In this document: piece after piece, positions 1,928 through 28,228 of the stretch
Numbering within the stretch: the stretch's first letter is position 1
How the letters are laid out: the number at the start of each line of letters is the position of its first letter
Sequence record: NZ_CP120882.1
DNA: 28,293 bases
Strand: one strand, 5' to 3'
From: a plasmid
Notes under the pieces: model-generated
Told to the model about the DNA's origin: nothing
Database searches by the model: none
The model's input: only the letters and a program-made list of their open reading frames with translations
Translations under genes and position numbers: made by a program

Positions 1928-1940
1928 TTTTAGCCGCTAA
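1928..1940. promoter_or_regulatory. KorB operator (OB): TTTAGCCGCTAAA
   Basis: Exact match to the 13-bp IncP-1 OB consensus TTTAGC(G/C)GCTAAA, immediately after the stop of the 1618..1926 ORF. Confidence 0.7.
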
Positions 1941-1956
1941 ATCTGACGCCAAGGGA

Positions 1957-1987
1957 AAGCCAGGCCGGCCGTGGTCTGGCTTTTTTC
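1957..1987 (+). terminator. Rho-independent terminator hairpin followed by a T-run
   Basis: Stem agccaggcc / ggtctggct, followed by ttttttcgttt. Confidence 0.5.
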
Positions 1988-2045
1988 GTTTGCGCCGGAG
2001 ATCGGCCGCGTAGAAACGCCCAGGACGGGGACGTCTCAGAAAACG

Positions 2046-2305
2046 GAAAATAAAGTACGTTAAGCCATTGGCATGGCCACCGCTCTCGCAAACGATCATT
2101 TTCAAGAAGCCACCGTGAGAATGCGGGCCGCGCCAGTGCTGGCCTTGTCCGTCCCGTTCTCGAAAACCGCTCTCGAATCGAGCCGCCGAGACTGCCGAGT
2201 TTCGAGAACAGCCGAAACGCCGCTTCCAGCGGCAGACGCCACACGCAAAGCCGCGCCGTTGCTGGATCGAGCATTCCTTAGCGTGCTTTAAATTCCGTTT
2301 TCTGA
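2046..2305. repeat. 260-bp segment bounded by perfect 13-bp inverted repeats TCAGAAAACGGAA / TTCCGTTTTCTGA. A 9-bp direct repeat CCCAGGACG lies just outside each end.
   Basis: The inverted repeats are at 2046-2058 and 2293-2305. The direct repeats are at 2029-2037 and 2312-2320. An inner inverted repeat GTTCTCGAAAAC / GTTTCGAGAAC is also present. Confidence 0.4.
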
Positions 2306-2468
2306 ATCGACCCCAGGACGCCCGAAACCGGGCGAGGGTAGGGGATAGGTGCCGCCAACCCCGGAAAACGCCGCCACGGCCCGCCCAGGCCCGAATTTCG
2401 ACCCCCGACGCGCTCCCGGCCGGGATGACCCAGGCCATGCGGAAAATAATGGCTTGCATAATAATAAG

Positions 2469-2489
2469 AATAAGAATATTATTCTTATT
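2469..2489. promoter_or_regulatory. AT-rich palindromic operator in the kfrA promoter: AATAAGAAT-ATT-ATTCTTATT
   Basis: 9-bp perfect inverted repeat inside a 40-bp AT-rich island, 25 bp upstream of the kfrA start. IncP-1 kfrA is known to be autoregulated through an inverted repeat in its promoter. Confidence 0.5.
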
Positions 2490-2513
2490 ATCTTATCCAC
2501 CGGAGCCGATGCC

Positions 2514-3455
2514 ATGACACCGCAAGCCCCCCAAATCCCCGCCGACGTGCGCGAGCGCATCATTGCCGCCGCCACTGATCTTTTCGAGCAGTCGGGCCGC
2601 GAGACGATGCCCACGGTCGATGCGGTGCGCCGGGCCGCCCGCGTGGATATGAATGCAGCCAGTGCCGTGATGAAGGAATGGCGCAGGGCGCAGACTGCCC
2701 AGGCCGCCCCGGTGGCCGTGGCGGTGCCGGAGGTTGTGCAGCAGGCCAGCAGCGCCGCCGTGGCGACGATCTGGCAGCAGGCCCAGGAGCTGGCGAACGA
2801 ATCCCTACGCAGCGCACAGGCCGCATGGGAAACCGAGCGGGCCGAGCTGGACGCGATGCGGCAGGAGCTGGCCGAGGCTTTCGAGCGCCAGGCCGGCGAG
2901 TTGGACGCGACCACGGCCGAGCTGGCCGCCGAGAAGGCCGCCACCGAAAAGCTGGCCCAGGAACTTGCCGCCGTTCGTCAAGAGCTGGGCGCAGCACAGG
3001 AACAGGCGCACACCGCCGAGGCCCGCGCCCAGGAGATCGAGCGCCGGGCCGACGAGCTGCGCACGGAACTGGACAGGGCGCACCAGGACGCCGACCAGGC
3101 ACGCGGGGCACTGGCCGAACAGCAGAAGGCCAGCCAGGCGGCCGCCGCTCAACTCGACCAGGTGCGCGCCGAGCTGGTGAAGGTGCAGGCCAAGGCCGAG
3201 GCCAACGAGGAAGCGCACCAAGAACAGCGCAAGACCGCAGCGGGCGAGGCGCACCGCATGGCCGAACGCCTCACCGCCGCCCAGGCCGAGCGCGACCAGG
3301 CCACGAAGGCGGCTGCACAGGCACGCGAAGAAGCCGCTCGCCTGGCCGGGCAGCTCGACACGCTCAAGGAGCAATCGGCCGCGCTGTTGGCCCGCATCAC
3401 ACCGCCGGCGGCCGAGGCGAAGCCCGCGACCAGGAAGAAGCCAGGCGGCGAGTGA
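2514..3455 (+). CDS. kfrA: KfrA-like alanine-rich coiled-coil DNA-binding protein
   Basis: N-terminus MTPQAPQIPADVRERIIAAATDLFEQSGRE is the HTH-like segment. A long Ala/Glu/Gln-rich heptad coiled coil follows, typical of IncP-1 KfrA. GGAG ribosome-binding site 8 nt upstream. The ORF track's upstream extension to 2349 is ignored. Confidence 0.8.
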   Translation: MTPQAPQIPADVRERIIAAATDLFEQSGRETMPTVDAVRRAARVDMNAASAVMKEWRRAQTAQAAPVAVAVPEVVQQASSAAVATIWQQAQELANESLRSAQAAWETERAELDAMRQELAEAFERQAGELDATTAELAAEKAATEKLAQELAAVRQELGAAQEQAHTAEARAQEIERRADELRTELDRAHQDADQARGALAEQQKASQAAAAQLDQVRAELVKVQAKAEANEEAHQEQRKTAAGEAHRMAERLTAAQAERDQATKAAAQAREEAARLAGQLDTLKEQSAALLARITPPAAEAKPATRKKPGGE

Positions 3456-3464
3456 CCGGCCCCC

Positions 3465-3627
3465 AGGGGGGGGCGATTTCACGAACTCAGGGGGAGGCCC
3501 GGATATTGACACTTGAGGGGCGCGGGCCTGCCTCTAGCGGCCAGGTTTGGCCGTCCTGATCTGTTGGCCGGTGGGAGGCGCAGGGGGGGGCGATTTCACG
3601 TCATGGGGTTATTGACACTTGAGGGGC
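3465..3627. repeat. Two direct repeats of about 50 bp (3465-3521 and 3581-3627), each with the motifs CAGGGGGGGGCGATTTCACG and ATTGACACTTGAGGGGC
   Basis: Found by direct sequence comparison. Repeat spacing is about 116 bp. The repeats lie between the kfrA stop and the traK stop. Confidence 0.6.
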
Positions 3628-3673
3628 CGGCCGACTGTCTCCCTTTGGCGTTCATCCACCCATCAGGGGCGGC

Positions 3674-4102
3674 TTACAGCAAGTCCTCTTTGTTCAGCGT
3701 TGGGTTGAAATTGAAGCTGGGAATCTTCCCGGCTTGCTCGCTGGCAGGGCTGGCCGGAGCTGGTACGGCCGGCTTTGGCGTGACGGCTGGAACGGTGGTC
3801 GGCGAGTCGCTGGCCGACCTGGTGGCGGCCTTCGGTGTCGGCGGCGCGGTGTCGGCCGGCGCTGCCTTGATGAACCGCTGGACGTGCCGGCGGAACGTCT
3901 CATAGCTGGTTTTCACCCGGCCGGTTTCGTGCATGTGATCGTAGATCGTCGTCAGCGCGTAACCGGCTTCCATTGCCTCGACCACATCCCCGCGCACCGC
4001 CAGAAACGCTACTGCCGCCGTGTCCTGGCGGCGCTTCTTCTCGGCCTTCTGATTGGCCCAGGCAGCAAGTTCATCGGTGTATCGGGTTCCCATCGGAATC
4101 AT
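3674..4102 (-). CDS. traK: oriT-binding relaxosome protein TraK
   Basis: 142 aa. Motifs YTDELAAWANQKAEKKRRQDTAAVAFLAVRGDV and the C-terminal FNFNPTLNKEDLL match the IncP TraK family as I recall it. The gene is divergent from traJ across oriT. The start could be the ATG at 4102 or the one at 4093. Confidence 0.75.
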   Translation of the reverse strand: MIPMGTRYTDELAAWANQKAEKKRRQDTAAVAFLAVRGDVVEAMEAGYALTTIYDHMHETGRVKTSYETFRRHVQRFIKAAPADTAPPTPKAATRSASDSPTTVPAVTPKPAVPAPASPASEQAGKIPSFNFNPTLNKEDLL

Positions 4103-4444
4103 TCCAGTTCATGAAATGTGTGCGGTCTAATGCGTGTAAAGCAGTAGGAAACTGCGTGGAAATTGGTAGTAAATCGTTGTTTGTTCGTGGATTCCATTGC
4201 ATTTTGCCCTACTGCACGCCAATACACCATTTTCCTTGCGAAAAACAATGCAATCCTACTGAACCGCTGTATAGTTTCCTTATCTAATGCAATGCTGAAT
4301 AGAGGGCAGGATGTGTGAAGTAGGCCCACCATGCAAGCATGGTGATCCTCTTCACTTCCCCTTATTCGCGCCTGCGGCGCTCAACGGGGCATCCTGCCCT
4401 GCGGGGCCAGCCGGCGGCCGCCGGCAACGACAGAGGACGCCAAG
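4103..4444. other. oriT: IncP-type origin of transfer (oriT) between traK and traJ
   Basis: 4304-4402 reads GGGCAGGATGTGTGAAGTAGGCCCACC...GGTGATCCTCTTCACTTCCCCTTATTCGCGCCTGCGGCGCTCAACGGGGCATCCTGCCC, which aligns with the RK2/RP4 oriT core (the imperfect 19-bp inverted repeat plus the ATCCTG|CCC nick motif). By analogy the nick lies on the minus strand opposite 4306/4307. A second ATCCTGCCC motif is on the plus strand at 4391-4399. The traK-proximal side (4110-4300) is AT-richer, like the TraK-binding region in RP4. Confidence 0.7.
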
Positions 4445-4822
4445 ATGGAGGCCAACGAGAACAAGGTAACGAGGAAGGGCAGTACGCCCATCAAGGTCTA
4501 TTGCCTGCCGGACGAACGGGCCGCCATCGAGGCCAACGCCCAAGCCGCCGGCATGAGCACGTCCGCCTACCTGCTGGCGGTCGGCCAGGGCTACCAGGTC
4601 AAAGGCGTGACCGACTTCGAGAACGTGCGCGACCTGGTGCGCGTGAATGGCGACCTCGGCCGGCTGGGTGGCCTGCTCAAGCTCTGGCTGACCGACGACC
4701 CGCGCACGGCTCGCTTCGGCGATGACACCATCCGGGCGCTGCTGGCCCGGATCGAGGCAACCCAGGACAAGATCAGCACCATCGCGGAAAGCGTGGTGCG
4801 GCCGCGAGGCGGGCAATCGTGA
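4445..4822 (+). CDS. traJ: Relaxosome accessory protein TraJ (binds the oriT inverted repeat)
   Basis: 125 aa. The segment KGSTPIKVYCLPDERAAIEANAQAAGMSTSAYLLAVGQGYQVKGV...GDLGRLGGLLKLWLTDDPRTARFGD is collinear with RP4 TraJ. Confidence 0.85.
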   Translation: MEANENKVTRKGSTPIKVYCLPDERAAIEANAQAAGMSTSAYLLAVGQGYQVKGVTDFENVRDLVRVNGDLGRLGGLLKLWLTDDPRTARFGDDTIRALLARIEATQDKISTIAESVVRPRGGQS

Positions 4823-6648
4823 TCGCCAAGCACGTGCCCATGCGCTCGCTGGGCAAGTCCGACTTCGCCGGCCTGGTGCGGTACGTCACCGACGCGCAGA
4901 GCAAAGACCACCGGCTGGGCCAGGTGCAGGTCACGAACTGCGCCGCCGACACCGTGCGCGATGCCATCACCGAGGTGCTGGCGACCCAGCAGGCCAACAC
5001 GCGGGCTAAGGGTGACAAGACCTATCACCTGATCGTCAGCTTTCGCGCCGGCGAGCAGCCGAGCGCCGATACCCTGCGGCAGATCGAGGCCCGCATCTGC
5101 GACGGGCTGGGCCTGGGCGAGCATCAGCGCGTCAGCGCCGTGCATAACGACACCGACAACCTGCACATCCACATCGCCATCAACAAGATTCACCCGACCA
5201 GGGGCACGATGCAGGAGCCGTACTACTCGCATCGGGCGCTGGCTGACCTCTGCGCGACCCTGGAACGCGACTACGGCCTGGAGCGGGACAACCACGAACC
5301 ACGCCAGCGCGGCGCGGCCGCCAGGGCCGGCGACCTGGAACAGCACGCCGGCGTGGAAAGCCTGGTCGGCTGGATCAAGCGCGAGTGCCTGGACGAGATC
5401 AAGGGCGCGGCGAGCTGGGCCGAGCTGCACCAGGTCATGCGCGATAACGGCCTGGCGCTGCGCGCACGCGGTAACGGCCTAGTCATCGAGGCCGGCGACG
5501 GCACGATCATCAAGGCCAGCACCTTGGCCCGCGACCTGTCCAAGCCCGCCCTGGAAAAGCGGCTTGGCACGTTCGAGGCGTCGCCCGAGCGCCAGGCCGC
5601 GCCGGCACAGCGCAACTACCAGAAGGGCCGGCCGATGCGTCTGCGCGGCGGCCTGGACACGACCGAGCTTTACGCCCGGTACAAGGGCGCACAGCAGACC
5701 CTCACGGCCGCCAGGGCCGGCGTGCTGGCCGAGGCGAAGCGCCGGAAGGATCGGGCCATCGAGCACGCCAAGAAGGCGGCGGCCACCCGGCGGGCGGCCA
5801 TCAAGCACCTGACCGATGGCCGGCTGACCAAGAAGCTGCTGTATGCCCAGGCCAGCGCCGCGCTGCGGGCCGACCTGGATGCGATCCACAAGCGCCACGA
5901 CCAGGAGCGGGCGGCGATCTACAACGAGCACCGCCGGCGGCCGTGGGCCGACTGGCTCAAGCAGCAGGCAACGGCCGGCGACGGCCAGGCGCTCGATGCG
6001 CTACGCGCCCGCGAGGCGGCCCAGGGCCTCAAGGGCGACACCATCCAGGGCGACGGCCAGGCGAAGCCCGGCCATGCCCCGGTGATCGACAGCATCACGA
6101 AGAAGGGCACGATCATCTACCGCGCCGGCAGCTCGGCCGTGCGCGATGACGGCGAGCGCCTGGCCGTGTCCAGCCAGGCCGACCGCGCCGGCGTGGCGGC
6201 GGCGCTGCGCCTGGCAATGGAACGCTACGGCGAGCGCATCACTGTCAGCGGCAGCGTGGAGTTCAAGGCCGCCGTGATCCGGGCGGCCGTCGATGCCCAG
6301 CTCCCCATCACCTTCGCCGATCCGGCACTGGAAAGCCGGCGGCAGGCCGAGGCCACCAAGGCCCAGGCCAAGCGCCGGCCAGGTGTGCCCCCTGTCGGCC
6401 AGGAGCCGCCGCCACATCGCCGGCACGGCCTGCGCACGTTGGGCCAGCTCGACGGGCTGCACATCGAGGGCGAAGCCCAGCGGCCGGCACAAGCGCCGAC
6501 CCAGGCCACCCCGACACCGCCGCCGGCCAAAGTGCAGCAGCCGGCCAGGCCCGCGCTGTCCGAGCTGGAACAGCGCGAGGCGCGGCTACGGGCGCAGATG
6601 GAAGCCAAGAAGGCGAAACGCCAGGAGGGCAAGAAGCGCGGGCGATGA
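4819..6648 (+). CDS. traI: IncP-type relaxase TraI, MOB-P family. At 609 aa it is shorter than the roughly 730-aa RP4/R751 TraI.
   Basis: GTG start overlaps the traJ stop as GTGA. N-terminus MIAKHVPMRS. The catalytic tyrosine region is LVRYVTD. The histidine triad HNDTDNLHIHIAINKI and the conserved GTIIYRAGSSAVRDDGERL block are present. The C-terminus ends in a Lys/Arg-rich tail right before an EcoRI site and the junction with trb. Confidence 0.85.
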   Translation: MIAKHVPMRSLGKSDFAGLVRYVTDAQSKDHRLGQVQVTNCAADTVRDAITEVLATQQANTRAKGDKTYHLIVSFRAGEQPSADTLRQIEARICDGLGLGEHQRVSAVHNDTDNLHIHIAINKIHPTRGTMQEPYYSHRALADLCATLERDYGLERDNHEPRQRGAAARAGDLEQHAGVESLVGWIKRECLDEIKGAASWAELHQVMRDNGLALRARGNGLVIEAGDGTIIKASTLARDLSKPALEKRLGTFEASPERQAAPAQRNYQKGRPMRLRGGLDTTELYARYKGAQQTLTAARAGVLAEAKRRKDRAIEHAKKAAATRRAAIKHLTDGRLTKKLLYAQASAALRADLDAIHKRHDQERAAIYNEHRRRPWADWLKQQATAGDGQALDALRAREAAQGLKGDTIQGDGQAKPGHAPVIDSITKKGTIIYRAGSSAVRDDGERLAVSSQADRAGVAAALRLAMERYGERITVSGSVEFKAAVIRAAVDAQLPITFADPALESRRQAEATKAQAKRRPGVPPVGQEPPPHRRHGLRTLGQLDGLHIEGEAQRPAQAPTQATPTPPPAKVQQPARPALSELEQREARLRAQMEAKKAKRQEGKKRGR

Positions 6649-6670
6649 CGCTTGCGAATTCTCGGATGTT

Positions 6671-6720
6671 CGATTAGCATCCGAGTTAGAAGCTAGAAGC
6701 TATATAGCAGCTAGTTAGCT
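6671..6720. repeat. Hairpin (ctcggatg...catccgag) followed by a cluster of TAGAAGCTAGAAGCTATATAGCAGCTAG repeats, related to the repeats flanking the parA/parG locus
   Basis: TAGCAGCTAG at 6704-6713 is identical to the motifs at 26738-26747 and 27707-27716. AGAAGCTAGA is the reverse complement of the TCTAGCTTCT repeats at 26688-26723. Confidence 0.5.
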
Positions 6721-6886
6721 TACACCGATGTTCAACAAAAATGGCCGGGCGCAACGGTGTCGCTCAGGTCGGGTACCGGGACAACGATTCGGCGTGTTGT
6801 CTCTGTGATGGCCCAACGCCGCCAGTTTGCCGAAAAGGCAGCAGGCCGGCGCAGCGCAGCCGCTCATCACATCGAGGTACTCGACC

Positions 6887-7672
6887 ATGAAACACGTCCG
6901 CCTTTTAGCGGCTAAAACCGCGCTCGCCGCTGCCCTGGCCGGCAGCATCATCATCACCCCGGCGCAGGCCGGCATTCCCGTCATCGACGGCGGGAACCTG
7001 GTGCAGAACGTCATGACGGCCATCGAGTCAGTGGCGCAGACGCTCAAGCAGATCGAGCAGTACCAGACCCAATTGCAGCAGTACGAGAACATGCTGCAAA
7101 ACACGATGGCCCCAGCGGCCTACATCTGGGATCAGGCGCAGTCCACCATCAACGGGCTGATGAATGCCGTCAACACGCTGGACTACTACAGGAACCAGCT
7201 CGGCAGTCTCGACGCCTACCTGGGCAAGTTCCAGGACGTGAGCTACTACCGCAGCTCGCCGTGCTTCTCGGCCGCCGGGTGCTCGGATGCCGAGCGCGCC
7301 GCGATGGAGCAAAACCGCCGCCTGGCGAGCGAGAGCCAGAAGAAGGCGAACGACGCGCTGTTCAAGGGTCTGGAGCAGCAGCAGCGCAACCTGACCGCCG
7401 ACGCTCGCCAGCTCGAACGGCTCCAGTCCGCTGCGCAGGGAGCGACCGGGCAGATGCAGGCCATCGGCTTCGCCAATCAGCTCGCTGCCAACCAAGCAAA
7501 CCAGCTTCTGCAAATCCGTGGCCTGCTGATCGCGCAGCAGAACGCCGCGACCGCCAGGATGCAGGCGCAGGCCGACCTTGAGGCGCAGCAGCAGGCCGCC
7601 GGCGCGACTTCCAGGGAATCCAGGATCGAGCGCACGGCAAGCCCGAGAAACTGGCTCGAACTGACCCGCTGA
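6887..7672 (+). CDS. trbJ: VirB5-like mating-pair-formation protein TrbJ
   Basis: Signal peptide MKHVRLLAAKTALAAALAGSIIITPAQAG. The block GIPVIDGGNLVQNVMTAIESVAQTLKQIEQYQTQLQQYENMLQNT is collinear with IncP-1 TrbJ. The ORF track's TTG start at 6827 is rejected in favour of the ATG at 6887, which has a GAGGT ribosome-binding site. Confidence 0.8.
   Translation: MKHVRLLAAKTALAAALAGSIIITPAQAGIPVIDGGNLVQNVMTAIESVAQTLKQIEQYQTQLQQYENMLQNTMAPAAYIWDQAQSTINGLMNAVNTLDYYRNQLGSLDAYLGKFQDVSYYRSSPCFSAAGCSDAERAAMEQNRRLASESQKKANDALFKGLEQQQRNLTADARQLERLQSAAQGATGQMQAIGFANQLAANQANQLLQIRGLLIAQQNAATARMQAQADLEAQQQAAGATSRESRIERTASPRNWLELTR
6904..6916. promoter_or_regulatory. KorB operator (OB): TTTAGCGGCTAAA, inside the first codons of trbJ
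   Basis: Exact OB consensus. It encodes RLLAAKT of the TrbJ signal peptide. Confidence 0.7.
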
Positions 7673-7687
7673 CGGAGGCCCTGCACC

Positions 7688-7954
7688 ATGAAGAAAACGA
7701 TGCTGCTTGCCGGCCTCGTGGTGGTGCTGGTGGCTGGCTGCGACAACAAGCCGGCCATCCCGCCCATGCCCGAGGTCAATGACACCAATTGCCAGATCGA
7801 GGCGATCAAGAAGATCGAGGACAGGGCCACGCGCGAGAAATTCGCCGGGCTGTGCTCGCGTCGGTCGCCGGCCGCCGGCGGCATCGCGCCGACCGAGAAG
7901 CCCATGAACTGGCTCGAACTGGCCGACCCGAAAGACCAGGAGGCGAAGCCATGA
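7688..7954 (+). CDS. trbK: Entry-exclusion lipoprotein TrbK
   Basis: 88 aa. Lipoprotein signal MKKTMLLAGLVVVLVAGC with lipobox LVAGC. Its position between trbJ and trbL matches IncP-1. Confidence 0.65.
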   Translation: MKKTMLLAGLVVVLVAGCDNKPAIPPMPEVNDTNCQIEAIKKIEDRATREKFAGLCSRRSPAAGGIAPTEKPMNWLELADPKDQEAKP

Positions 7955-9612
7955 AAGCACTGCACAAGGCGGCGCTGATCGGCGTCACCCTCGCGCTTTA
8001 CTCCACCGCCGCATCGGCCCAGCTCACCAACCAAGGGATGCTTGACCAGGTGGTGACGGAGTTCGCCACGCGGGCCACGTCCTGGCAGACGGTGGTGATG
8101 AATGCCGCGATGTTCCTGTTCTGGACGCTGGGCACGATCTCGCTGGTTTTCACGTTCGGCTTCATGGCGCTGCGCAAGGCCGACATTGGCGAGTTCTTCG
8201 CCGAGTTCATCCGCTTCATCCTGTTCTTTGGCTTCTTCCTCTGGCTGCTGCGCAACGGCCCGGCCTTCGCCAACTCGATCATCCAGTCATTGGCCCGGAT
8301 CGGTGAGCAGGCGTCCGGGGTGGCATCGGTGACACCCTCGGGCATCGTGGATATCGGCTTCATGATCTTGAAGCAGGCATTCAGCAACTCGTCGATCTGG
8401 TCGCCCGTGGATAGCTTCATCGGCGTGGCCTTGAGCCTCGGCATCCTGATCTTGCTGGCTGTCGTTGCCATAAACATGCTGTTGCTGCTCGTCTCGGGCT
8501 GGCTGCTGATGTACGCCGGCATCTTCTTCCTCGGCTTCGGCGGAAGCCGTTGGACGTCCGACATGGCGATCAACTACTACAAGACCGTGTTGGGCGTGGC
8601 CGTGCAGATCATGACGATGGTGCTCCTGGTCGGCATCGGGAACGACCTGCTTTCCAGCTTCTACGCCAGGATGAACACCGGCACGCTGAACTTTGAAGAG
8701 CTGGGCGTGATGCTGGTTTTCTGCGTGGCGTTGCTCATGCTGGTCAATCGCGTGCCGCCGCTTGTCGCCGGCATCATCACCGGCTCGGGTATCGGTGGCG
8801 CTGGTGGCATCGGCAACTTCGGTGCAGGTGCTGCCATCGGTGCGGCTATGGGCGCGGCGAGCATGGCCGCCGGTGCGGCAAGCGTGGCCGGCGCGGCCGT
8901 GATGGGTGGTGCAGCCTCGGCCGCCGGCGGCATGTCGGCCATCAAAGCAGCGTTCGAGAAAGCGGGATCGAGCGCCGGCGGCGAGTCGGGCGGAATGCCC
9001 ATGCTCGGCGGTGGCTCCGACTCCGGCAGCGATGCAGGCTCGTTTGCGCAAGCTGCTGGCTTTGGTGGCGGGTCAAGCTCAGGAGCGGGCACCACTACAC
9101 CACTTGCACAGGCCGCCGGTTTCGGCAGCAGCTCGGGCAGCGGTGCCAGCGGCTCGGGTGGAAGCAATGGGCAACAGCCCGGTAAATCGGGTGGAGGTTC
9201 CAGCTCGAAGGGTGGCGACGAAGCCGGCAGCAAGAAAGCCCAGCAAGGCGGCCAGCAGGCAGCACCAGGCAGCACCGGCCCCGGCTTGCTGGCCTCGGCC
9301 GCATCGGCGCTTGGCACGGCGGGCCGCGTGACGGCCGACGCCGGCGCGAACCTGATGCAAGGCGTCGGCGAGGTTGCGAAGGCCAAGGCCGCCAGCATGC
9401 GCGACGCCGCCGCCGAACGCATCGCTGACACCACCGGCGGGAAGATCGCGGCGGCTATCAGGGCGAGTGCGGAGAGTGACCAGGCCGCCGCTGTCGAGGC
9501 GGTGCCGACATTCGGCGGCAACAACCTGGCAGGGGCCGATTCGGCTGCTGCCGATCCTGATGACGAAGTGGCCGCGTTCGCCAACCGCGAGCACGGTAAA
9601 TCGGAGGCGTGA
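7951..9612 (+). CDS. trbL: VirB6-like inner-membrane mating-pair-formation protein TrbL
   Basis: ATG at 7951 overlaps the trbK stop, with an AGGAGG ribosome-binding site. Signal peptide MKALHKAALIGVTLALYSTAASA. Multiple transmembrane segments and a Gly/Ser/Ala-rich C-terminal tail, as in IncP TrbL. Confidence 0.8.
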   Translation: MKALHKAALIGVTLALYSTAASAQLTNQGMLDQVVTEFATRATSWQTVVMNAAMFLFWTLGTISLVFTFGFMALRKADIGEFFAEFIRFILFFGFFLWLLRNGPAFANSIIQSLARIGEQASGVASVTPSGIVDIGFMILKQAFSNSSIWSPVDSFIGVALSLGILILLAVVAINMLLLLVSGWLLMYAGIFFLGFGGSRWTSDMAINYYKTVLGVAVQIMTMVLLVGIGNDLLSSFYARMNTGTLNFEELGVMLVFCVALLMLVNRVPPLVAGIITGSGIGGAGGIGNFGAGAAIGAAMGAASMAAGAASVAGAAVMGGAASAAGGMSAIKAAFEKAGSSAGGESGGMPMLGGGSDSGSDAGSFAQAAGFGGGSSSGAGTTTPLAQAAGFGSSSGSGASGSGGSNGQQPGKSGGGSSSKGGDEAGSKKAQQGGQQAAPGSTGPGLLASAASALGTAGRVTADAGANLMQGVGEVAKAKAASMRDAAAERIADTTGGKIAAAIRASAESDQAAAVEAVPTFGGNNLAGADSAAADPDDEVAAFANREHGKSEA

Positions 9613-9614
9613 CC

Positions 9615-9872
9615 ATGAAACGTAGTGGCTTTTTCGACTGCCTGGCGCTCGACCAGGTGCAGCGGCCGGCGGTGGAGTTTGAGCAGCCTGGCGACCAATC
9701 AACCGAGCTTGATGCGGCGGCGGAAGTGGCGGCCTTCGTTGATCGCCCTGCCCCGTCTGCCATCGAGGCCACCAGGCCGGCGGCCAGGTCATCGAGCAAC
9801 AGCTACAGCGGCAGCAACAGGAACACGCCGCTGGCAGAGGCCGCCGGCATCTACAGCAGCGGCCAGCGGTAA
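9615..9872 (+). CDS. Hypothetical 85-aa ORF downstream of trbL. It could be a degenerate remnant of the next trb gene.
   Basis: ATG 3 bp after the trbL stop. No signal peptide. Ser/Ala-rich low-complexity C-terminus. Confidence 0.3.
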   Translation: MKRSGFFDCLALDQVQRPAVEFEQPGDQSTELDAAAEVAAFVDRPAPSAIEATRPAARSSSNSYSGSNRNTPLAEAAGIYSSGQR

Positions 9873-9935
9873 AGCGCGCCGGCCGGCGTGGGGCCGGCCG
9901 ACACTTCCACAACCCACCTACCACAGAGGTGAATC

Positions 9936-10169
9936 ATGGCAACTTTGAATCCTACCAATGCAATCGCAACCCAGGCAGTTCATCATGCGGCCGCGCAGCT
10001 CGCGGCCCTGGACTGGATCGACCAAGAGGCGGCGCGGCAGCTCTCGCCGATGGCGGAAGCCGTCGCCAATATGTTCATGGTGCTGTACTACCAGGCCGAG
10101 ACGGGCCAGGCCACGCGGGACGACTTCCGCCAGGCCCTGGACGCGGTGCGGCAGTCACTTACCGCGTAG
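9936..10169 (+). CDS. Hypothetical small protein (77 aa)
   Basis: AGAGGTG ribosome-binding site 6 nt upstream. Followed directly by a strong terminator. Confidence 0.45.
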   Translation: MATLNPTNAIATQAVHHAAAQLAALDWIDQEAARQLSPMAEAVANMFMVLYYQAETGQATRDDFRQALDAVRQSLTA

Positions 10170-10226: not shown

Positions 10227-10511
10227 TTATAGCGCAGGTGCAAGGTCGTTCATTTCTTCGATACGGAGCATCCTAATGTCACGCACAGAGGCTTTGAACC
10301 ATGTGTAAGTCGTACTGAGTTGCTGTGCGGCCAAGACACACTGAACTGCATTGATGCGTTCATCGCCGAAGTAGACGCTTCCCTGTTGCCAAGAGAACCC
10401 GAGAGGTTCTAGCGTTTTGCGAATGTCCCCGTAAGCGTTGTTCCAGGACGGATTGGGGTAAGACTGTTTGAGTGTTTCTGTATCAAGATCGAAAGCAATG
10501 GCGTAGGTCAT
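10227..10511 (-). CDS. vapD: VapD-family (Cas2-like) endoribonuclease
   Basis: 94 aa. MTYAIAFDLDTETLKQ...LGFSWQQGSVYFGD...KASVRDIRMLRIEEMNDL matches the VapD family pattern. The local region is about 50% GC against about 65% for the backbone. Confidence 0.8.
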   Translation of the reverse strand: MTYAIAFDLDTETLKQSYPNPSWNNAYGDIRKTLEPLGFSWQQGSVYFGDERINAVQCVLAAQQLSTTYTWFKASVRDIRMLRIEEMNDLAPAL

Positions 10512-10520
10512 CGTGTTCCC

Positions 10521-10790
10521 TTAGTTGTAAGAGCGGCGGGGTGCAATTTGGGATACACGGGCTGAGCTGACGCCGTACTTTTCGGCAACGGCCTTTGTTG
10601 CAGCGCCGTTTGCGATCTCGGCTTGGATGGCGCTGTTGCGCAGTTCCATGACTTTGGTTTCGAGGGCCGCGATGTCTTGGCCTTGGCTCTCGATGATTTT
10701 CCCGTGCGTTGCGACGGTCTTTTCCAAGTCCTTATGCGCCTTGGCGATTGATTCAAGCGCGTGCAGGATGTGGTTCTTTTGGCGTGCCAT
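10521..10790 (-). CDS. VapD-partner protein (VapX-like position) with a C-terminal resolvase-type HTH
   Basis: 89 aa. Helical N-terminus. C-terminal ATKAVAEKYGVSSARVSQIA resembles the HTH_7/Hin-type motif. AAGGGAA ribosome-binding site for vapD lies 9 bp downstream. An AT-rich near-palindrome TTAAATTAAATTAATTTAA sits in its promoter at 10806-10826. Confidence 0.5.
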   Translation of the reverse strand: MARQKNHILHALESIAKAHKDLEKTVATHGKIIESQGQDIAALETKVMELRNSAIQAEIANGAATKAVAEKYGVSSARVSQIAPRRSYN

Positions 10791-11145: not shown

Positions 11146-11982
11146 CTAGTATGACGTCTGTCGCACCTGCTTGATCGCGGCCGCGATAGCTAGATCGCGT
11201 TGCTCCTCTTCTCCATCCGCGTTCCAAGCTGCGGAAAGGCACCCATAAGCGTACGCCTGGTCGAGCAGGCGACGCGGATCGACGTCCAGCGCACGAGAGA
11301 ATGCGTCCGCCATCTGTGCAATGCGTCTAGGATCGAGACAAAGGTCGTCTCTGTCAGCCGGATCGTAGAACATATTGGCGGCGCCAAAGCCCACTTCACC
11401 GACCAGACCGACGGGATCTATCACCAGCCAGCCGCGACTGGAGAACATGATGTTTTCATGATGCAGATCGCCATGTAGCCCACGCAGTTCCGAGGCATTG
11501 CTCATCATTTGATCGGCTATAATCGCCGCGTGGACGTAGTCAGTTTGACAACCTGCGTTTTGATCATCGCGCGCCCGCTGAAACAAAGCTGCAAAGCGAT
11601 CCCGGATCGGGAGAAGGGCAGAAGGCAGGGGTTCCTCAGATGCGGCATACAGCTTCGCCATTAGTTCCGCTGCAATTTCGGTCGCCTGGTAGTCGCCGTG
11701 CTCGGCAACGATGTGAGAGAGCATTCGCTCCCCGGCATATTCGAGCAACATCAGATTGTTCTCACGACCGAGCAACCGGACTGCTCCCCTCCCATTGCGC
11801 CATACCAGATAGTCGGCCCCGCGCAGTTCATCAGCAATGTCTTCTATAGGTTTCAATCCCTTGACGATTGCAGGAGTCCCGTCTGGCAATGAAACTTTCC
11901 AAACGAGGCTGGAAAAGGTGTCCGCAATGAGAACAGGTTGCGAAACGTGCCAATGAGCAGGAAAAACAGGCGGCATGAACAT
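11146..11982 (-). CDS. strB: Aminoglycoside 6-phosphotransferase APH(6)-Id (streptomycin resistance)
   Basis: The protein starting MFMPPVFPAHWHVSQPVLIADTFSSLVWKV... is the StrB sequence as I recall it. It overlaps the strA stop as TGATG. Confidence 0.9.
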   Translation of the reverse strand: MFMPPVFPAHWHVSQPVLIADTFSSLVWKVSLPDGTPAIVKGLKPIEDIADELRGADYLVWRNGRGAVRLLGRENNLMLLEYAGERMLSHIVAEHGDYQATEIAAELMAKLYAASEEPLPSALLPIRDRFAALFQRARDDQNAGCQTDYVHAAIIADQMMSNASELRGLHGDLHHENIMFSSRGWLVIDPVGLVGEVGFGAANMFYDPADRDDLCLDPRRIAQMADAFSRALDVDPRRLLDQAYAYGCLSAAWNADGEEEQRDLAIAAAIKQVRQTSY

Positions 11983-23625: not shown

Positions 23626-23752
23626 CATTCACCTTCCGGCCGCCCGCTAGCGGACCCTGGTCAGGTTCCGCGAAGGTGGGCGCAGACATGCTGGGCTCGT
23701 CAGGATCAAACTGCACTATGAGGCGGCGGTTCATACCGCGCCAGGGGAGCGA

Positions 23753-24253: not shown

Positions 24254-24575
24254 CGTCCGTTCGGGCATCGAGGTCCATGTCGGGGTGGGACGGGCCCGTG
24301 GCTTCAAGATCACTTGCAGTCCGACCGCGATGTCTTGGTTGCGCGAGAGGTTGTCGATATCCTCCACTTCCATCATCAACCCTGGATAATGCCGCCGCCG
24401 TCATCGCCGCCGACGCCCGTGCCGGGCTTTTCGGGCCTGTCAGGCTTGCTCGGCCTTCAGCCTGCCTGGGCGAGATCTCCGGCGGACGGATTAACGGCGG
24501 AGCTTCGCCGCCTTTCGTGCGTGTGAAGGCCGAAGATAGTTCTCTCAAAAACATCCGTTTATGAGAGATACCAAA

Positions 24576-24698
24576 TGTCATTTTCAGAAGACGACTGCAC
24601 CAGTTGATTGGGCGTAATGGCTGTTGTGCAGCCAGCTCCTGACAGTTCAATATCAGAAGTGATCTGCACCAATCTCGACTATGCTCAATACTCGTGTG
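24576..24698. repeat. 123-bp inverted copy of the Tn402 IRt end, on the inner side of IS6100
   Basis: Starts TGTCATTTTCAGAAGACGACTGCAC. It is the reverse complement of the outer fragment at 25608-25730. Confidence 0.85.
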
Positions 24699-25578
24699 GG
24701 CTCTGTTGCAAAAATCGTGAAGCTTGAGCATGCTTGGCGGAGATTGGACGGACGGAACGATGACGGATTTCAAGTGGCGCCATTTCCAGGGTGATGTGAT
24801 CCTGTGGGCGGTGCGCTGGTATTGTCGCTATCCGATCAGCTATCGCGACCTTGAGGAAATGCTGGCGGAACGCGGCATTTCGGTCGACCATACGACGATC
24901 TATCGCTGGGTCCAGTGCTACGCCCCGGAGATGGAGAAGCGGCTGCGCTGGTTCTGGCGGCGTGGCTTTGATCCGAGCTGGCGCCTGGATGAAACCTACG
25001 TCAAGGTGCGGGGCAAGTGGACCTACCTGTACCGGGCAGTCGACAAGCGGGGCGACACGATCGATTTCTACCTGTCGCCGACCCGCAGCGCCAAGGCAGC
25101 GAAGCGGTTCCTGGGCAAGGCCCTGCGAGGCCTGAAGCACTGGGAAAAGCCTGCCACGCTCAATACCGACAAAGCGCCGAGCTATGGTGCAGCGATCACC
25201 GAATTGAAGCGCGAAGGAAAGCTGGACCGGGAGACGGCCCACCGGCAGGTGAAGTATCTCAATAACGTGATCGAGGCCGATCACGGAAAGCTCAAGATAC
25301 TGATCAAGCCGGTGCGCGGTTTCAAATCGATCCCCACGGCCTATGCCACGATCAAGGGATTCGAAGTCATGCGAGCCCTGCGCAAAGGACAGGCTCGCCC
25401 CTGGTGCCTGCAGCCCGGCATCAGGGGCGAGGTGCGCCTTGTGGAGAGAGCTTTTGGCATTGGGCCCTCGGCGCTGACGGAGGCCATGGGCATGCTCAAC
25501 CACCATTTCGCAGCAGCCGCCTGATCGGCGCAGAGCGACAGCCTACCTCTGACTGCCGCCAATCTTTGCAACAGAGCC
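24699..25578 (+). mobile_element. IS6100 (IS6 family), 880 bp
   Basis: Terminal inverted repeats GGCTCTGTTGCAAA at 24699-24712 and TTTGCAACAGAGCC at 25565-25578. It encodes a 254-aa transposase. Confidence 0.95.
24760..25524 (+). CDS. tnpA: IS6100 transposase
   Basis: MTDFKWRHFQGDVILWAVRWYCRYPISYRDLEEMLAERGISVDHTTIYRWVQ... is the IS6100/IS6 DDE transposase. Confidence 0.95.
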   Translation: MTDFKWRHFQGDVILWAVRWYCRYPISYRDLEEMLAERGISVDHTTIYRWVQCYAPEMEKRLRWFWRRGFDPSWRLDETYVKVRGKWTYLYRAVDKRGDTIDFYLSPTRSAKAAKRFLGKALRGLKHWEKPATLNTDKAPSYGAAITELKREGKLDRETAHRQVKYLNNVIEADHGKLKILIKPVRGFKSIPTAYATIKGFEVMRALRKGQARPWCLQPGIRGEVRLVERAFGIGPSALTEAMGMLNHHFAAAA

Positions 25579-25730
25579 TCCGTCGCCATGCTCACCTCGC
25601 TTTGGTGCACACGAGTATTGAGCATAGTCGAGATTGGTGCAGATCACTTCTGATATTGAACTGTCAGGAGCTGGCTGCACAACAGCCATTACGCCCAATC
25701 AACTGGTGCAGTCGTCTTCTGAAAATGACA
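25579..25730. repeat. 152-bp IRt-end fragment, the outer and functional integron terminus
   Basis: Ends with the IRt 25-mer at 25706-25730. The 123-bp and 152-bp lengths match the In4 arrangement. Confidence 0.85.
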
Positions 25731-25770
25731 GCTACGATAGGCGCATTCAGGTATGCCCAAAGGAGCCAGC

Positions 25771-26676
25771 ATGAGCAGGACGAAGCCAGCAGCCGCGCCG
25801 ATGGTGGCGCGGGTCTATCTGCGCGTCAGCACCGACGCGCAAGACCTTGAACGCCAGGAAGGGATCATCACGGCCGCGAAGGCCGCCGGGTACTACGTCG
25901 CCGGCATCTACCGCGAGAAAGCCAGCGGCGCACGCGCTGACCGGCCCGAGCTGCTGCGCATGGTGGCCGACCTGCAACCGGGCGAGGTGGTCATTGCCGA
26001 GAAGATCGACCGCATCAGCCGCCTACCCTTGCCCGAGGCCGAGCGCCTGGTGGCCTCGATCCGGGCCAAGGGTGCGCGCCTGGCCGTCCCTGGCGTGGTC
26101 GATCTATCCGACCTGGCGGCCGAGGCCCAGGGCGTCGCCAAGATCGTCCTGGAATCCGTCCAGGACATGCTTTTGAAGCTGGCCCTACAGATGGCCCGCG
26201 ACGACTACGAGGACAGGCGCGAGCGGCAGCGCCAGGGCATCGAGCTGGCGAAGCGGGACGGCCGCTACAAGGGCCGGCGGGCCGATCCGAAGCTGCGCGC
26301 CCAGGTGATCGCGTTGCGCAGCATCGGCCAGAGCATCGCGGAGACTGCCAAGCTGGCCGGGTGCAGCGTGGCCCAGGTCAAACGGATTTGGGCCAGCCGT
26401 GACATGAGCCGGGCCGAGGCGGCCAGGCATGGCGCTTTCGTGGAGGACGCATTGACCGAGGCCGACGCCGGCGCGGCGGCCGACGTGGAGCAGGGCGCGG
26501 CCGAGCTGCCCGAGCCGGCTTTTCTGGACGATGAAGGCCCAGTCGCCGATCTGCCGATGCCCCCGTACCGAACCCAAAACCTGCCGCAAATCCTGGCGGC
26601 CCTCACCGATGACGAGCTGGCGACGTGGCCCGGCGACCTGGCAGACGCCGAGCGGGCGCGGCGGCGCAAACTTTAG
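25771..26676 (+). CDS. Serine recombinase/resolvase with a long C-terminal extension (about 300 aa); candidate plasmid multimer-resolution enzyme
   Basis: VYLRVSTDAQDLERQ is the catalytic-serine motif. HTH at SIAETAKLAGCSVAQVKRIW. About 110 further residues are acidic and Ala-rich. AGGAG ribosome-binding site. The gene starts only 40 bp after the integron IRt. Confidence 0.75.
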   Translation: MSRTKPAAAPMVARVYLRVSTDAQDLERQEGIITAAKAAGYYVAGIYREKASGARADRPELLRMVADLQPGEVVIAEKIDRISRLPLPEAERLVASIRAKGARLAVPGVVDLSDLAAEAQGVAKIVLESVQDMLLKLALQMARDDYEDRRERQRQGIELAKRDGRYKGRRADPKLRAQVIALRSIGQSIAETAKLAGCSVAQVKRIWASRDMSRAEAARHGAFVEDALTEADAGAAADVEQGAAELPEPAFLDDEGPVADLPMPPYRTQNLPQILAALTDDELATWPGDLADAERARRRKL

Positions 26677-26684
26677 CGGCTAAA
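26672..26684. promoter_or_regulatory. KorB operator (OB): TTTAGCGGCTAAA, overlapping the resolvase stop codon
   Basis: Exact OB consensus. Confidence 0.7.
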
Positions 26685-26687
26685 ATC

Positions 26688-26755
26688 TATCTAGCTACTA
26701 TCTTGTATCTAGCTTCTATCTTATAATCGCTGCTACCTAGCAGCTAGATAGGGGC
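26688..26755. repeat. Iteron cluster upstream of parA; candidate centromere/operator
   Basis: Direct repeats TATCTAGCT(A/T)CTATCTT occur twice. Then the palindrome GCTGCTA-CC-TAGCAGC at 26729-26744 and TAGCAGCTAGATAG. Confidence 0.5.
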
Positions 26756-26761
26756 TAAATT

Positions 26762-27394
26762 ATGGCGGCGATTGTCGCATTCGTCTCACAGAAGGGCGGC
26801 GTAGGGAAATCCACCCTGGCGCGTGCCCTTGCACGCGAAGCGGCCGCCGGCGGCTTGCGCGTGAAGGTAGCAGACCTGGATACACAGCAGGGAACTGCTG
26901 TCGATTGGCACCGCCTGCGGCTTTCTCAGGGCATTGAACCCGTGGTGTCCGTCGAGGCGTTCGCCACGGCCGCGCAGGCCCTGGAAGCGGCCAAGGGCTA
27001 CGACCTTCTCATCATCGACGGGCCGGCCCGCACCAGCTCGGCGACGCTCGACATAGCCCGCGCTGCCGATTTGATCGTCCAGCCGTCCGGCGCATCGAGG
27101 GATGACCTCATTCCGGCCGTGCGCGAGTTCCACGCGCTGACAAAGGCCGGTGTCCCGAACGACCGCCTAGCGTTCGCCCTCAACCGCATCGGCACGCCGG
27201 CGGAAGAGGTCGCGGCGCGGGTCTATTTGCAGCAGGCCGGCTACACCGTCCTGGATGGGAGCTTGCGCGACCGGCCGGCCTACCGCCAGGCGCAAAACAC
27301 CGGCCACAGCATCACGGAAACCCGCTTTGCGGGCCTGAACGAGCGGGCCGACACACTCATTCAATCGCTCATCGACCGGGTGACAAATGGCTGA
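26762..27394 (+). CDS. parA: Small Walker-type ParA partition ATPase (type Ib)
   Basis: 210 aa. Deviant Walker A motif SQKGGVGKST at the N-terminus. The size is typical of ParF/pB171 ParA-like proteins. Confidence 0.8.
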   Translation: MAAIVAFVSQKGGVGKSTLARALAREAAAGGLRVKVADLDTQQGTAVDWHRLRLSQGIEPVVSVEAFATAAQALEAAKGYDLLIIDGPARTSSATLDIARAADLIVQPSGASRDDLIPAVREFHALTKAGVPNDRLAFALNRIGTPAEEVAARVYLQQAGYTVLDGSLRDRPAYRQAQNTGHSITETRFAGLNERADTLIQSLIDRVTNG

Positions 27395-27716
27395 CGTATC
27401 CAAGCTCAAGAAACTGAAAGGCCGGCGCGACGAGCTGGGCGCACCGCCAACGCTGGACGAGGCCAGCACGAACCTGACCGCGCCGGAGGTTGCGCCGGTA
27501 GCCAGGCCGACCGCCGCCAACCCACCACCGCAAGCACCGGCGGCCAAGAAGATCGACGGCCGGAGCGCCCGCAAGACGAACCGCACGGTGCAGTTCGCCA
27601 CGCGGGTGACGCCGGAATGGGATGCCCGCATTCGCGCCCTGGCGCAGCGTGAAGGTGTGCTGCTGGTCGAGGTACTGGAAAAAGCCCTTGACCACTACGA
27701 ACAATCTAGCAGCTAG
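27387..27716 (+). CDS. ParG/ParB-like ribbon-helix-helix centromere-binding protein
   Basis: 109 aa. Overlaps the parA stop. Disordered basic N-terminus. C-terminal RTVQFATRVTPEWDARIRALAQREGVLLVEVLEKAL is the RHH fold. Confidence 0.65.
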   Translation: MADVSKLKKLKGRRDELGAPPTLDEASTNLTAPEVAPVARPTAANPPPQAPAAKKIDGRSARKTNRTVQFATRVTPEWDARIRALAQREGVLLVEVLEKALDHYEQSSS

Positions 27717-27741
27717 TTTGCTGCTAGGTAGCAGCTACATA
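27705..27741. repeat. Downstream partner repeat set: TCTAGCAGCTAG plus the inverted palindrome GCTGCTA-GG-TAGCAGC
   Basis: Mirror image of the 26729-26747 site. Overlaps the parG-like stop codon. Confidence 0.5.
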
Positions 27742-27799
27742 ATCGAAAACCGACACCTGCATTTTTCGTTAATGCTGGACACTGCTGCGAAGGTGGGGC

Positions 27800-28114
27800 A
27801 TGATTACGTTTGATTCAAAGGCTGTCATCAATCCGACCGCGTTTAAGGAGGTCGTTTTGGTGGGTGGCGTACAGGGTGCGACTGTCACCGTTGCAGAGAA
27901 GGGCCTGGTTCTGGCGCTTCGGATCGGCGGAGAAAATCGCATCCTTGGGCAGTATCGGGGTGGCCCCCGCTACTTCCGCACGATTGACGCGGCGGCGTCG
28001 TTGCTGATCCAGCACGGCATCTACCGCTTCGAGGCGGACGTGGCCGGGTGGAAGCCCAAGACGCTGACCCGCAAAGGTGGCGAGCTGCTGGGTGGCACCG
28101 GCATCGAGCCGTAA
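27800..28114 (+). CDS. Hypothetical 104-aa protein
   Basis: AGGTGG ribosome-binding site. Followed by a terminator hairpin at 28122-28147. Confidence 0.45.
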   Translation: MITFDSKAVINPTAFKEVVLVGGVQGATVTVAEKGLVLALRIGGENRILGQYRGGPRYFRTIDAAASLLIQHGIYRFEADVAGWKPKTLTRKGGELLGGTGIEP

Positions 28115-28121
28115 AAATGCA

Positions 28122-28147
28122 AAAGCCCCGTTTGGCGACGGGGCTTT
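28122..28147 (+). terminator. Rho-independent terminator hairpin (aaagccccgt-ttggcg-acggggcttt)
   Basis: Perfect 10-bp stem. Confidence 0.55.
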
Positions 28148-28216
28148 GGCGGGGGTTCCGGGCCTATCAGCTTTGGCGAGCTGGCAGACACGACAGCCGA
28201 TGAATGAGGAACGACT

Positions 28217-28228
28217 GTTTAGCTAAAC
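28217..28228. promoter_or_regulatory. KorA operator (OA): GTTTAGCTAAAC
   Basis: Exact 12-bp IncP-1 OA palindrome, 65 bp before the window end and upstream of rep if the molecule is circular. Confidence 0.65.

Follow-up and report, generated by a model that had tools for sequence, protein, structure and literature searches.

In the IncP-1 plasmid RK2, the CTP-bound form of KorB loads onto DNA at its operator (OB) and slides, and KorA bound to its own operator (OA) locks KorB at core promoter elements (PMC11790492). IncP plasmids have been proposed as helpers of integrated elements, the IncP islands and GIsul2, whose TrbJKL proteins are in turn proposed to subvert the mating-pair formation (Mpf) apparatus and the exclusion of the helper (PMC5704250, PMC9376610). 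Meanwhile, SGI1 both exploits and destabilises its IncC helper (PMC10954446). Here, we describe sequence record NZ_CP120882.1, a stretch of 28,293 bp (the window) that constitutes a complete circular plasmid of the pMATVIM-7/p07-406 family, the members of which have been called MOBP11 plasmids of unclassified replicon and 'probably mobilisable' (PMC9501424). The window is a non-self-transmissible 'satellite' plasmid with its own replicon, its own partition locus and an IncP-type mobilisation cassette. It displays exact OA and OB operators together with iterons of the type bound by the IncP-1 initiator TrfA, and it encodes none of the three proteins. We propose, with a probability of roughly 65%, that these are selected docking sites that would be read in trans by the KorA, KorB and TrfA of an IncP-1-type helper.

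Exact-pattern searches returned three perfect OB sites (TTTAGCSGCTAAA), here called OB1 to OB3, and one perfect OA site (GTTTAGCTAAAC), all listed in Table 1. An earlier sequence-only reading of this DNA had counted the same four sites, although it placed the first OB at 1928-1940, one nucleotide too early. Under a first-order Markov model, the expected number of exact matches is 0.0003 for OB and 0.0002 for OA. No fourth OB occurs in the window even when 2 mismatches are allowed, and 3 matches were reached by none of 100 shuffles. When the window was examined for the cis-targets of the regulon, its consensus OA and OB sequences proved identical to the published cores, which are those used experimentally with RK2 KorB and KorA (PMC11790492).

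The operators are found at putative control points, the promoters concerned being predictions. OA covers the start of a predicted promoter with 10/12 matches, OB3 lies by the parA promoter region, where it adjoins a CTAGC-repeat region, OB2 is at the 5' end of trbJ, and OB1 closes the rep-orf102 operon, just before an intrinsic terminator at 1962-1982. The claim that one OB falls within the signal-peptide codons of trbJ as in IncP-1 plasmids is borne out by R751, the trbJ gene of which holds an OB at the homologous codons. Two OBs had also been said to overlap stop codons. This is true of OB3 and the resolvase gene, but OB1 begins only after the TGA of orf102. The nearest OBs to OA are OB3, 1,533 bp upstream, and OB1, ~1,993 bp downstream across rep-orf102; the sliding KorB clamp and the KorA lock explain operators that lie kilobases from OA (PMC11790492). 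Several OBs are followed within 0-5 nucleotides by CGCCAAGGRAAAG (in pMUB-AF14-2 (L014) at 11620; in the window at 1929-1960), a hint that OBs may have been dispersed as a short cassette and not created by point mutation.

The third IncP-1 element of the window is an iteron (TGACACTTGAGGGGC), first spotted as a conserved motif beside the kfrA-distal OB of related plasmids and present here in two copies. It is identical to the oriV (replication origin) iterons of R751, p2-T1 and RK2, and in the last of these it is part of the five-iteron fragment bound by TrfA (PMC3273809). In the oriV of R751 and of the IncP-1β plasmid p2-T1, the same iteron forms a 5+3+1+1 array with ~22-bp spacing. A match with at most 1 mismatch appeared in 0 of 200 Markov simulations of the window. 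Hence, the window holds predicted docking sites for three IncP-1 trans-acting proteins and the genes of none. A pair of isolated iterons set in GC-rich DNA cannot serve as an origin and would more plausibly titrate TrfA or handcuff the oriV of a helper.

The kfrA-traK spacer, in which the iterons lie, also contains a 20-mer (CAGGGGGGGGCGATTTCACG) twice and perfectly (3464-3483 and 3581-3600), one copy beside each TrfA iteron. In pMRCP1333 (L018, 1020-1249), the Rep_3 rep gene is immediately followed by five tandem copies of this motif. The 20-mer thus looks like the iteron of the pMRCP1333 Rep_3 replicon, in which case the spacer would hold the orphan iterons of two foreign initiators. Beyond traK lies an IncP-type origin of transfer (oriT), overlapped by a match to Rfam RF01760 (the traJ-II cis-regulatory RNA) at 4304-4408, upstream of traJ. 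The presence of an IncP-type oriT with its nick motif makes IncP-1 the expected helper.

The surroundings of OA are less simple than had been assumed. The sequence-only reading put OA at a rep promoter. Its position upstream of rep stands, but the only strong sigma70-like promoter in the parC-rep spacer faces away from rep, and a scan of the spacer gave no clear rep-direction promoter overlapping OA. Between this predicted promoter and an intrinsic terminator lies a candidate RNA of ~110 nucleotides with three hairpins (z = -3.8; 0 of 200 shuffles were as stable) and no Rfam match. An equivalent promoter (TTGTGC-17-TACAAT) and terminator can be seen in an alignment, judged by eye, of the sister plasmids that lack OB. 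The candidate would be antisense to read-through from parC to rep, and may be a copy-number control RNA. Repeats of the CTAGCWKCTA type cluster upstream of trbJ (6687-6714), parA (26709-26747) and parC (27706-27716), with 7 matches where 0.12 are expected. Their probable role is that of operator or centromere sites for the partition adaptor that the plasmid itself encodes, orf109, which occupies the position of ParG; in that case, trbJKL would be tied to the par circuit.

No gene for a reader of the operators was found on the plasmid. Six-frame tblastn searches of the circularised window with KorA, KorB, IncC, KorC, TrbA and TrfA of R751 (E<=10) returned noise only, with best E-values of 0.5-0.8 for KorA and KorB, and Pfam and NCBIfam scans of all backbone open reading frames (ORFs) found no ParB, KorA, KorB or TrfA domain. 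Together, these searches rule out hidden korA, korB, incC or trfA genes, and the earlier claim that the first three are missing holds. That reading had allowed that korA and korB might lie elsewhere on the same replicon. The window, however, has a twin, the circular 26.6-kb plasmid pNY11384-aadB of P. aeruginosa (100% identity across 91% of a 25-kb query), with the same first base (the rep ATG) and the same 179-bp tail after parC, the sole difference being integron cassettes. The junction between the end and the start of the window is also collinear with internal sequence of relatives. The window is therefore the whole replicon, and regulators elsewhere on it are excluded.

For the comparison with relatives, we assembled a graded panel of eight small plasmids that carry OB (OB+) and eight sister plasmids with related Rep proteins (66-86% amino acid identity) that do not (OB-). 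In a presence/absence matrix built with both R751 and IncU queries, no OB+ plasmid encodes KorA or KorB. Coding capacity for KorA, KorB, IncC or TrfA was found neither in the eight OB+ small plasmids nor in the 53 genomic loci described below. Exactly two iterons lie downstream of kfrA in every OB+ small plasmid, while all eight OB- relatives have none. Among the relatives, OB1 is kept at the same place in six (L002, L012, L014, L015, L016 and L017), with a 3' flank that becomes unalignable; OB3 is kept in L002, L012 and pMRCP1333, and has 1 central mismatch in L015; and OA is perfect in every RepB-type OB+ relative. The same sites recur in the less diverged members, namely Acidovorax p3-T1, X. 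perforans pLH3.4, pMATVIM-7 and an X. cucurbitae plasmid, with two extra OBs in pMATVIM-7. In Marinobacter pMAD49b and K. oxytoca p2990, the cassette is only ~78% identical to the window at the nucleotide level. Even so, the OBs that follow orf102 and lie within trbJ are perfect in both plasmids, as is the OA upstream of rep; both also have two iterons and, downstream of kfrA, an OB that is perfect or has 1 central mismatch. Across the divergent pairs (pMAD49b, p2990 and R751), the cores are 100% consensus, whereas the flanks are 53-79% identical or unalignable, and OA stays perfect though its distance to the flanking inverted-repeat arm varies by 21 bp.

The sites also persist where modules have been exchanged. 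All that Alcaligenes pMUB-AF14-2 has in common with the window is rep, orf102, kfrA and the resolvase; its par genes are different and its relaxase is of the Ti type. It carries three OBs, a near-OB, OA and two iterons, one of the OBs standing 16 bp upstream of the traA start. The Rep_3 plasmid pMRCP1333 displays two iterons, OA and four OBs, one of which precedes the ribosome-binding site of rep by 5 bp. Meanwhile, the eight OB- sisters, five of which have the same par-rep scaffold, contain no OA, OB or iteron even at 1-2 mismatches, and they display a different loop at the position aligned to OA upstream of rep. The trbJ codons that make up the OB read TTA-GCS-GCT-AAA. Of the 316 leucine codons of the backbone, only 2 are TTA, one of them here, and the joint probability of the codon choice is ~7e-5. 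Collectively, the invariant cores amid diverged flanks, the swapped modules, the site-free sisters and the rare trbJ codons argue for purifying selection on the DNA sites themselves, which would have been recruited into control regions that are not of IncP-1 origin. As judged from this panel, the sites track the lineage and not a single module.

A scan of species-representative genomes for an iteron-N3-8-OB composite widened the picture to 53 loci. Most are elements integrated at the 3' end of guaA, with a tyrosine integrase, orf332 and IncQ-like RepA and RepC, in which inverted iteron-OB composites ~3.6 kb apart bracket the int-repA-repC block. Beyond this block lie traK, traJ, in some cases traI, and trbJKL; TrbJ, TrbK and TrbL are 93-99% and TraI up to 98% identical to those of the window in amino acids. 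In total, the 365 kb of these loci yielded 91 perfect OBs, 71 perfect iterons and 11 trbJ OBs but no Kor or TrfA homologue. KfrA, orf102 and Rep are likewise missing from the integrated elements, and only plasmid-type loci showed OA. The integrated elements (L054, L051, L064 and ~40 other loci) are integrative mobilisable elements of the 'IncP island' or GIsul2 type. One of their composites adjoins R751-type repeats resembling a KfrA operator, with no kfrA detected.

The docking-site reading draws on the perfect cores, the missing cognate genes, the signs of purifying selection, the IncP-type oriT and a natural co-residence. In Acidovorax sp. T1, the satellite p3-T1 sits beside p2-T1, a 79-kb IncP-1β plasmid with korA, incC, korB, trfA and full tra and trb regions, the KorA of which has the same protein accession as that of R751. 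Several observations nevertheless weigh against it. Three of the 4 strains checked have no IncP-1 plasmid and carry instead MOBH plasmids or a P-type Trb/TraG plasmid without Kor genes, so that co-residence is suggestive and not obligatory. The family member pPE52IMP yielded no transconjugants in conjugation experiments. Another, pSMC1, was very stable in Serratia without an IncP-1 plasmid and was cured only after deletion of parABC, which is needed for its stability (PMC4231636). The sites are hence unneeded for basic maintenance, and any benefit must come during encounters with a helper. The satellites have neither OB nor OA at the kfrA promoter, where R751 has an OB and an OA-like site, and OA lies on a predicted divergent promoter and not on a recognisable rep promoter, so that copy number might rise or fall. 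Individual sites can furthermore be dispensable, since the sub-lineage of the window no longer has the kfrA-distal OB that its relatives possess. The Rep_3 20-mers could be remnants of replicon exchange, and as orphan iterons in the same spacer they fit leftovers of replicon swapping for at least some sites; part of the kfrA-traK spacer sites may thus be historical.

These last points bear on the least improbable alternative, namely that the window descends from an IncP-1-like ancestor and that OA, OB and the iterons are neutral leftovers not yet decayed. The facing kfrA and traK followed by oriT, traJ and traI are indeed syntenic with IncP-1β, minus kfrBC and traLM, the trbJ OB occupies its ancestral position, and the lost kfrA-distal OB, the single mismatches in sites of some relatives and the orphan Rep_3 iterons would all suit slow decay. 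We nonetheless consider such fossil sites unlikely, given cores that are perfect where flanks have diverged or cannot be aligned, rare codons retained in trbJ, and sisters of the same scaffold without any site. Leftovers are likewise difficult to reconcile with the contexts that are foreign to IncP-1 (the RepB rep spacer, the end of orf102, the parA promoter, a Ti-type traA leader and a Rep_3 rep leader) or with the 91 perfect OBs and 71 perfect iterons spread over 53 diverse genomic loci. The sequence-only reading had left the choice between regulators supplied in trans by an IncP-1 helper and fossil sites undecided. Comparison lends indirect support to the former and argues strongly against the latter, with co-residence in only one of four strains as a reservation.

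A slightly less probable alternative is that the system is self-contained, with an unrecognised plasmid protein (KfrA, orf102, orf109, ParC or the resolvase) reading TTTAGC half-sites and no helper needed. Several small backbone ORFs have no family assignment, and the end of orf102 2 nucleotides before OB1 is a conserved arrangement. KfrA of the IncP-1 type is moreover the only protein that every one of the eight OB+ small plasmids encodes and no OB- relative does, a tempting co-occurrence. KfrA, however, comes in two divergent N-terminal types, and the repeats in its own promoter change with the type: those of the window are of AATAAGAAT-type, whereas the other type goes with GTAGTAT/ACTAC-type repeats like those of R751. 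OA and OB do not vary between the two. The AT-rich palindrome at the kfrA promoter of the window is likely the KfrA operator. Known KfrAs bind their own operators and not OB, and interact with KorB and IncC (PMC7783346). On the strength of this covariation and the known operators, KfrA was rejected as the reader of OB. As universal readers, orf102, orf109, ParC and the resolvase are ruled out by their presence and absence across the panel; orf102 is absent from the OB+ plasmid pMRCP1333 and present in four OB- plasmids, and orf109 is absent from three OB+ plasmids. None of these four proteins has PDB sequence similarity to KorA or KorB. The integrated elements display the same sites without KfrA, orf102 or Rep, and a single novel protein cannot explain two operators and a TrfA iteron that are all in IncP-1 form. 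Since two distinct operators and an iteron all have their exact IncP-1 forms, the most parsimonious readers are KorA, KorB and TrfA in trans.

Least probable is that the sites belong to the mobilisation cassette of the guaA elements, serving for instance excision or replication control there, and were carried along here by recent recombination: the 93-99% identity of the cassette proteins and the inverted composites flanking int-repA-repC would fit, but the shared cassette does not include OA, OB1 or OB3, which occupy rep and par regions specific to the plasmid and are kept across plasmids at ~78% nucleotide identity, pMUB-AF14-2 has sites without the cassette, and the integrated elements also lack Kor and TrfA genes, which only moves the question.

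The proteins that bind the sites, and the direction and benefit of their regulation, are what we infer in the following scheme for docking sites read in trans. An IncP-1-type helper sharing the cell would supply the KorA, KorB and TrfA that read the satellite. Its KorB-CTP clamps would load at the three OBs and slide, while KorA on OA would cover the start of the predicted antisense-RNA promoter and lock the incoming clamps, so that both could act on the replication-control region of the satellite. Through OB3 by the parA promoter, par would come under KorB, as would trbJKL through OB2 at the start of the trbJ gene, and the two iterons would bind helper TrfA, by way of titration or handcuffing. 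The net effect would be a satellite with its replication control, partition and Mpf/exclusion genes wired into the global circuit of the helper. In turn, the satellite may use or perturb the replication and the KorB/IncC partition of the helper.

A wider proposal, which we regard as possible though on balance doubtful, is that an inter-element regulon has evolved in a widespread guild of elements that are not self-transmissible. Its members would be small carbapenemase-bearing plasmids with at least 3 different replicons and the islands integrated at guaA; exact Kor and TrfA sites would let incoming IncP-1 proteins act on these elements, which would titrate or handcuff them in return. The payoff could be de-repressed transfer of the helper, borrowed partition machinery, or a depressed or displaced helper. 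If so, the KorAB circuit reaches beyond one replicon and offers a natural in-trans test bed for the KorB sliding-clamp model.

Table 1. Coordinates of the operators, iterons, other sites and backbone genes in the window
Feature	Position	Strand	Description
OB1	1929-1941		TTTAGCCGCTAAA, perfect; 2 nt past the orf102 stop, at the end of the rep-orf102 unit
OB2	6904-6916		Perfect; trbJ codons 6-10 (L-L-A-A-K), signal peptide
OB3	26672-26684		Perfect; holds the resolvase TAG; ends 77 nt upstream of the parA ATG
OA	28217-28228		Perfect; parC-rep spacer, 65 bp upstream of the rep ATG
TrfA-type iteron, copy 1	3507-3521	+	TGACACTTGAGGGGC, IncP-1 oriV type, perfect
TrfA-type iteron, copy 2	3613-3627	+	Direct repeat, 106 bp from copy 1
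IncP-type oriT core	4304-4426	+	Nick motif ATCCTGC (nick between G and the last C) at 4391-4397; 82% identical to the oriT of IncP-1β p2-T1
Predicted sigma70-like promoter	28232-28260	-	TTGCCA-17-TAGAAT, 10/12 matches; faces away from rep; start ~28225, inside OA
Candidate RNA, ~110 nt	28112-28226	-	From the predicted promoter to an intrinsic terminator (stem 28147-28122 and T-run)
AT-rich iterated palindrome	~2460-2500		AATAAGAAT units; overlaps the kfrA promoter; co-varies with the KfrA N-terminal type
rep	1-1383	+	RepB/IncU-type initiator, unrelated to TrfA; no Pfam match; 62-69% amino acid identity to IncU RepB
orf102	1618-1926	+	Downstream of rep; TGA stop 1924-1926
kfrA	2514-3455	+	DNA-binding coiled-coil protein; Pfam KfrA_N, E 3e-17
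traK	3674-4093	-	Relaxosome gene
traJ	4445-4822	+	Relaxosome gene
traI	4819-6648	+	Relaxosome gene
trbJ-trbK-trbL	6887-9612	+	Mpf fragment including the entry-exclusion gene; TrbJ 77% identical to R751 in amino acids
Serine resolvase	25753-26676		307 aa; TAG stop 26674-26676
parA	26762-27394	+	Own partition locus (with orf109 and parC), not of IncC/KorB type
orf109	27387-27716	+	Partition locus
parC	27800-28114	+	Partition locus

The backbone places the window within its family, as the RepB-type Rep, parA-orf-parC, kfrA and the traKJI-trbJKL genes of this family were all found. Compared with pMATVIM-7, the window has 96% nucleotide identity in tra/trb and 87% amino acid identity in Rep. The traK, traJ and traI genes are ~75-80% identical in nucleotides to those of true IncP-1 plasmids, and neither a coupling protein nor trb genes other than trbJ, trbK and trbL were found in the window. 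Further backbone genes comprise a PtaRNA1 type I and a ParE/CopG toxin-antitoxin system; Rfam placed the PtaRNA1 antitoxin RNA at 9872-9942, opposite the ptaRNA1 toxin gene (9936-10169). The remaining DNA is cargo, consisting of Tn3-family sequence, strAB and a class 1 integron. In PLSDB, no large korAB-bearing parent carries the cassette at high identity; matches of at least 90% are all to small plasmids, and true IncP-1 plasmids reach at most 80%. MOB-suite types the plasmids L001, L002 and L012-L016 as replicon 'IncP' (PLSDB) despite the lack of trfA and of an IncP-1 oriV, a label that is misleading for this plasmid family.

Two further observations concern insertions. The stretches 2027-2064 and 2277-2314 are 38-bp terminal inverted repeats of the Tn21/Tn3 family, 82% complementary and with only 212 bp between them. 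They delimit a miniature element lacking a transposase, inserted downstream of the rep-orf102 terminator and ahead of kfrA. Two small ORFs at 10227-10790 (minus strand), where the strAB insertion has its edge, occur only here and in the twin pNY11384-aadB. One contains a Cas2/VapD-like domain and is annotated 'virulence factor', the other matches DUF3071 weakly, and the pair may be toxin-antitoxin-like.

The accessible papers on the family and on the integrated elements, a coverage that leaves out the primary p07-406 and IncP-island papers, make no mention of Kor operators or iterons. The OB string does occur in the Serratia paper, but solely as part of a PCR primer (PMC4231636), and the pMOS94 literature concerns a different lineage and was uninformative. 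The plasmids and islands carry VIM, IMP, KPC and OXA beta-lactamase and aminoglycoside resistance genes in Pseudomonas, Achromobacter, Enterobacterales and plant pathogens. If they are wired to the KorA/KorB/TrfA of IncP-1, their helper is identified, and the conditions of mobilisation and shifts in copy number become predictable.

Among described systems, the window shares with the IncP-1 plasmids (RK2/RP4 and R751) identical OA, OB and iteron sequences, an OB at the same trbJ codons, an OA on a core promoter element (predicted in the window), OBs both near putative promoters and kilobases off, an IncP-type oriT and KfrA. It differs from them in having no korA-incC-korB central control operon, trbA or trfA, a RepB/IncU-type initiator, and an unrelated ParA/ParC set. 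Instead of complete Tra1 and Tra2 regions (trbB-trbP, traG and others), it carries only traK, traJ, traI, trbJ, trbK and trbL. Tblastn and Pfam showed no TrfA, and two isolated iterons stand in place of a multi-iteron oriV. The OB-32 bp-OA architecture of korAp and trfAp is likewise missing, and the kfrA promoter has neither OA nor OB. With the pMATVIM-7 (p07-406)/pSMC1/pPE52IMP family, it has in common a Rep that is 87-100% identical, tra/trb at ~96% nucleotide identity and parA-orf-parC, while its own sub-lineage has another KfrA type and has lost the kfrA-distal OB. The IncP islands and GIsul2 display the same traK-oriT-traJ-traI-trbJKL-ptaRNA1 cassette with OBs, the trbJ OB and TrfA-type iterons, also without Kor or TrfA genes. 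They differ from the window, a RepB-type plasmid, in their tyrosine integrase and IncQ-like RepA/RepC. The window has this mobilisation cassette, and its backbone contains no guaA-type tyrosine integrase, the only integrase being the intI1 of the integron.

The closest parallel in strategy is that of SGI1 and MGI elements with their IncC (A/C) helpers. These, too, are non-self-transmissible resistance elements that carry sites for a helper regulator (AcaCD boxes), mimics of the helper parS that bind the helper ParB, and a few Mpf subunit genes, which in SGI1/MGI remodel the helper apparatus (PMC10954446, PMC5704250). The window likewise carries sites for a helper regulator, ParB and initiator without the corresponding genes; for helper-dependent regulation or stabilisation, or for destabilisation of the helper, the sole evidence is the one natural co-residence. 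It differs in being an autonomous plasmid with its own partition locus, in that the helper proteins would be repressors, a ParB clamp and an initiator and not an activator, and in being known from sequence alone. Probably, then, a known strategy of mobilisable elements, the carriage of helper-regulator and ParB sites, is here applied to the KorA/KorB/TrfA network of IncP-1, in a guild of plasmids and islands of clinical relevance. If this is true, the KorB clamp/KorA lock model gains a natural system with loading and lock sites 1.5-2 kb apart and proteins from another molecule. The best-studied global regulon of plasmids would then reach across replicons, as a repressor and ParB-clamp counterpart of the SGI1-IncC system.

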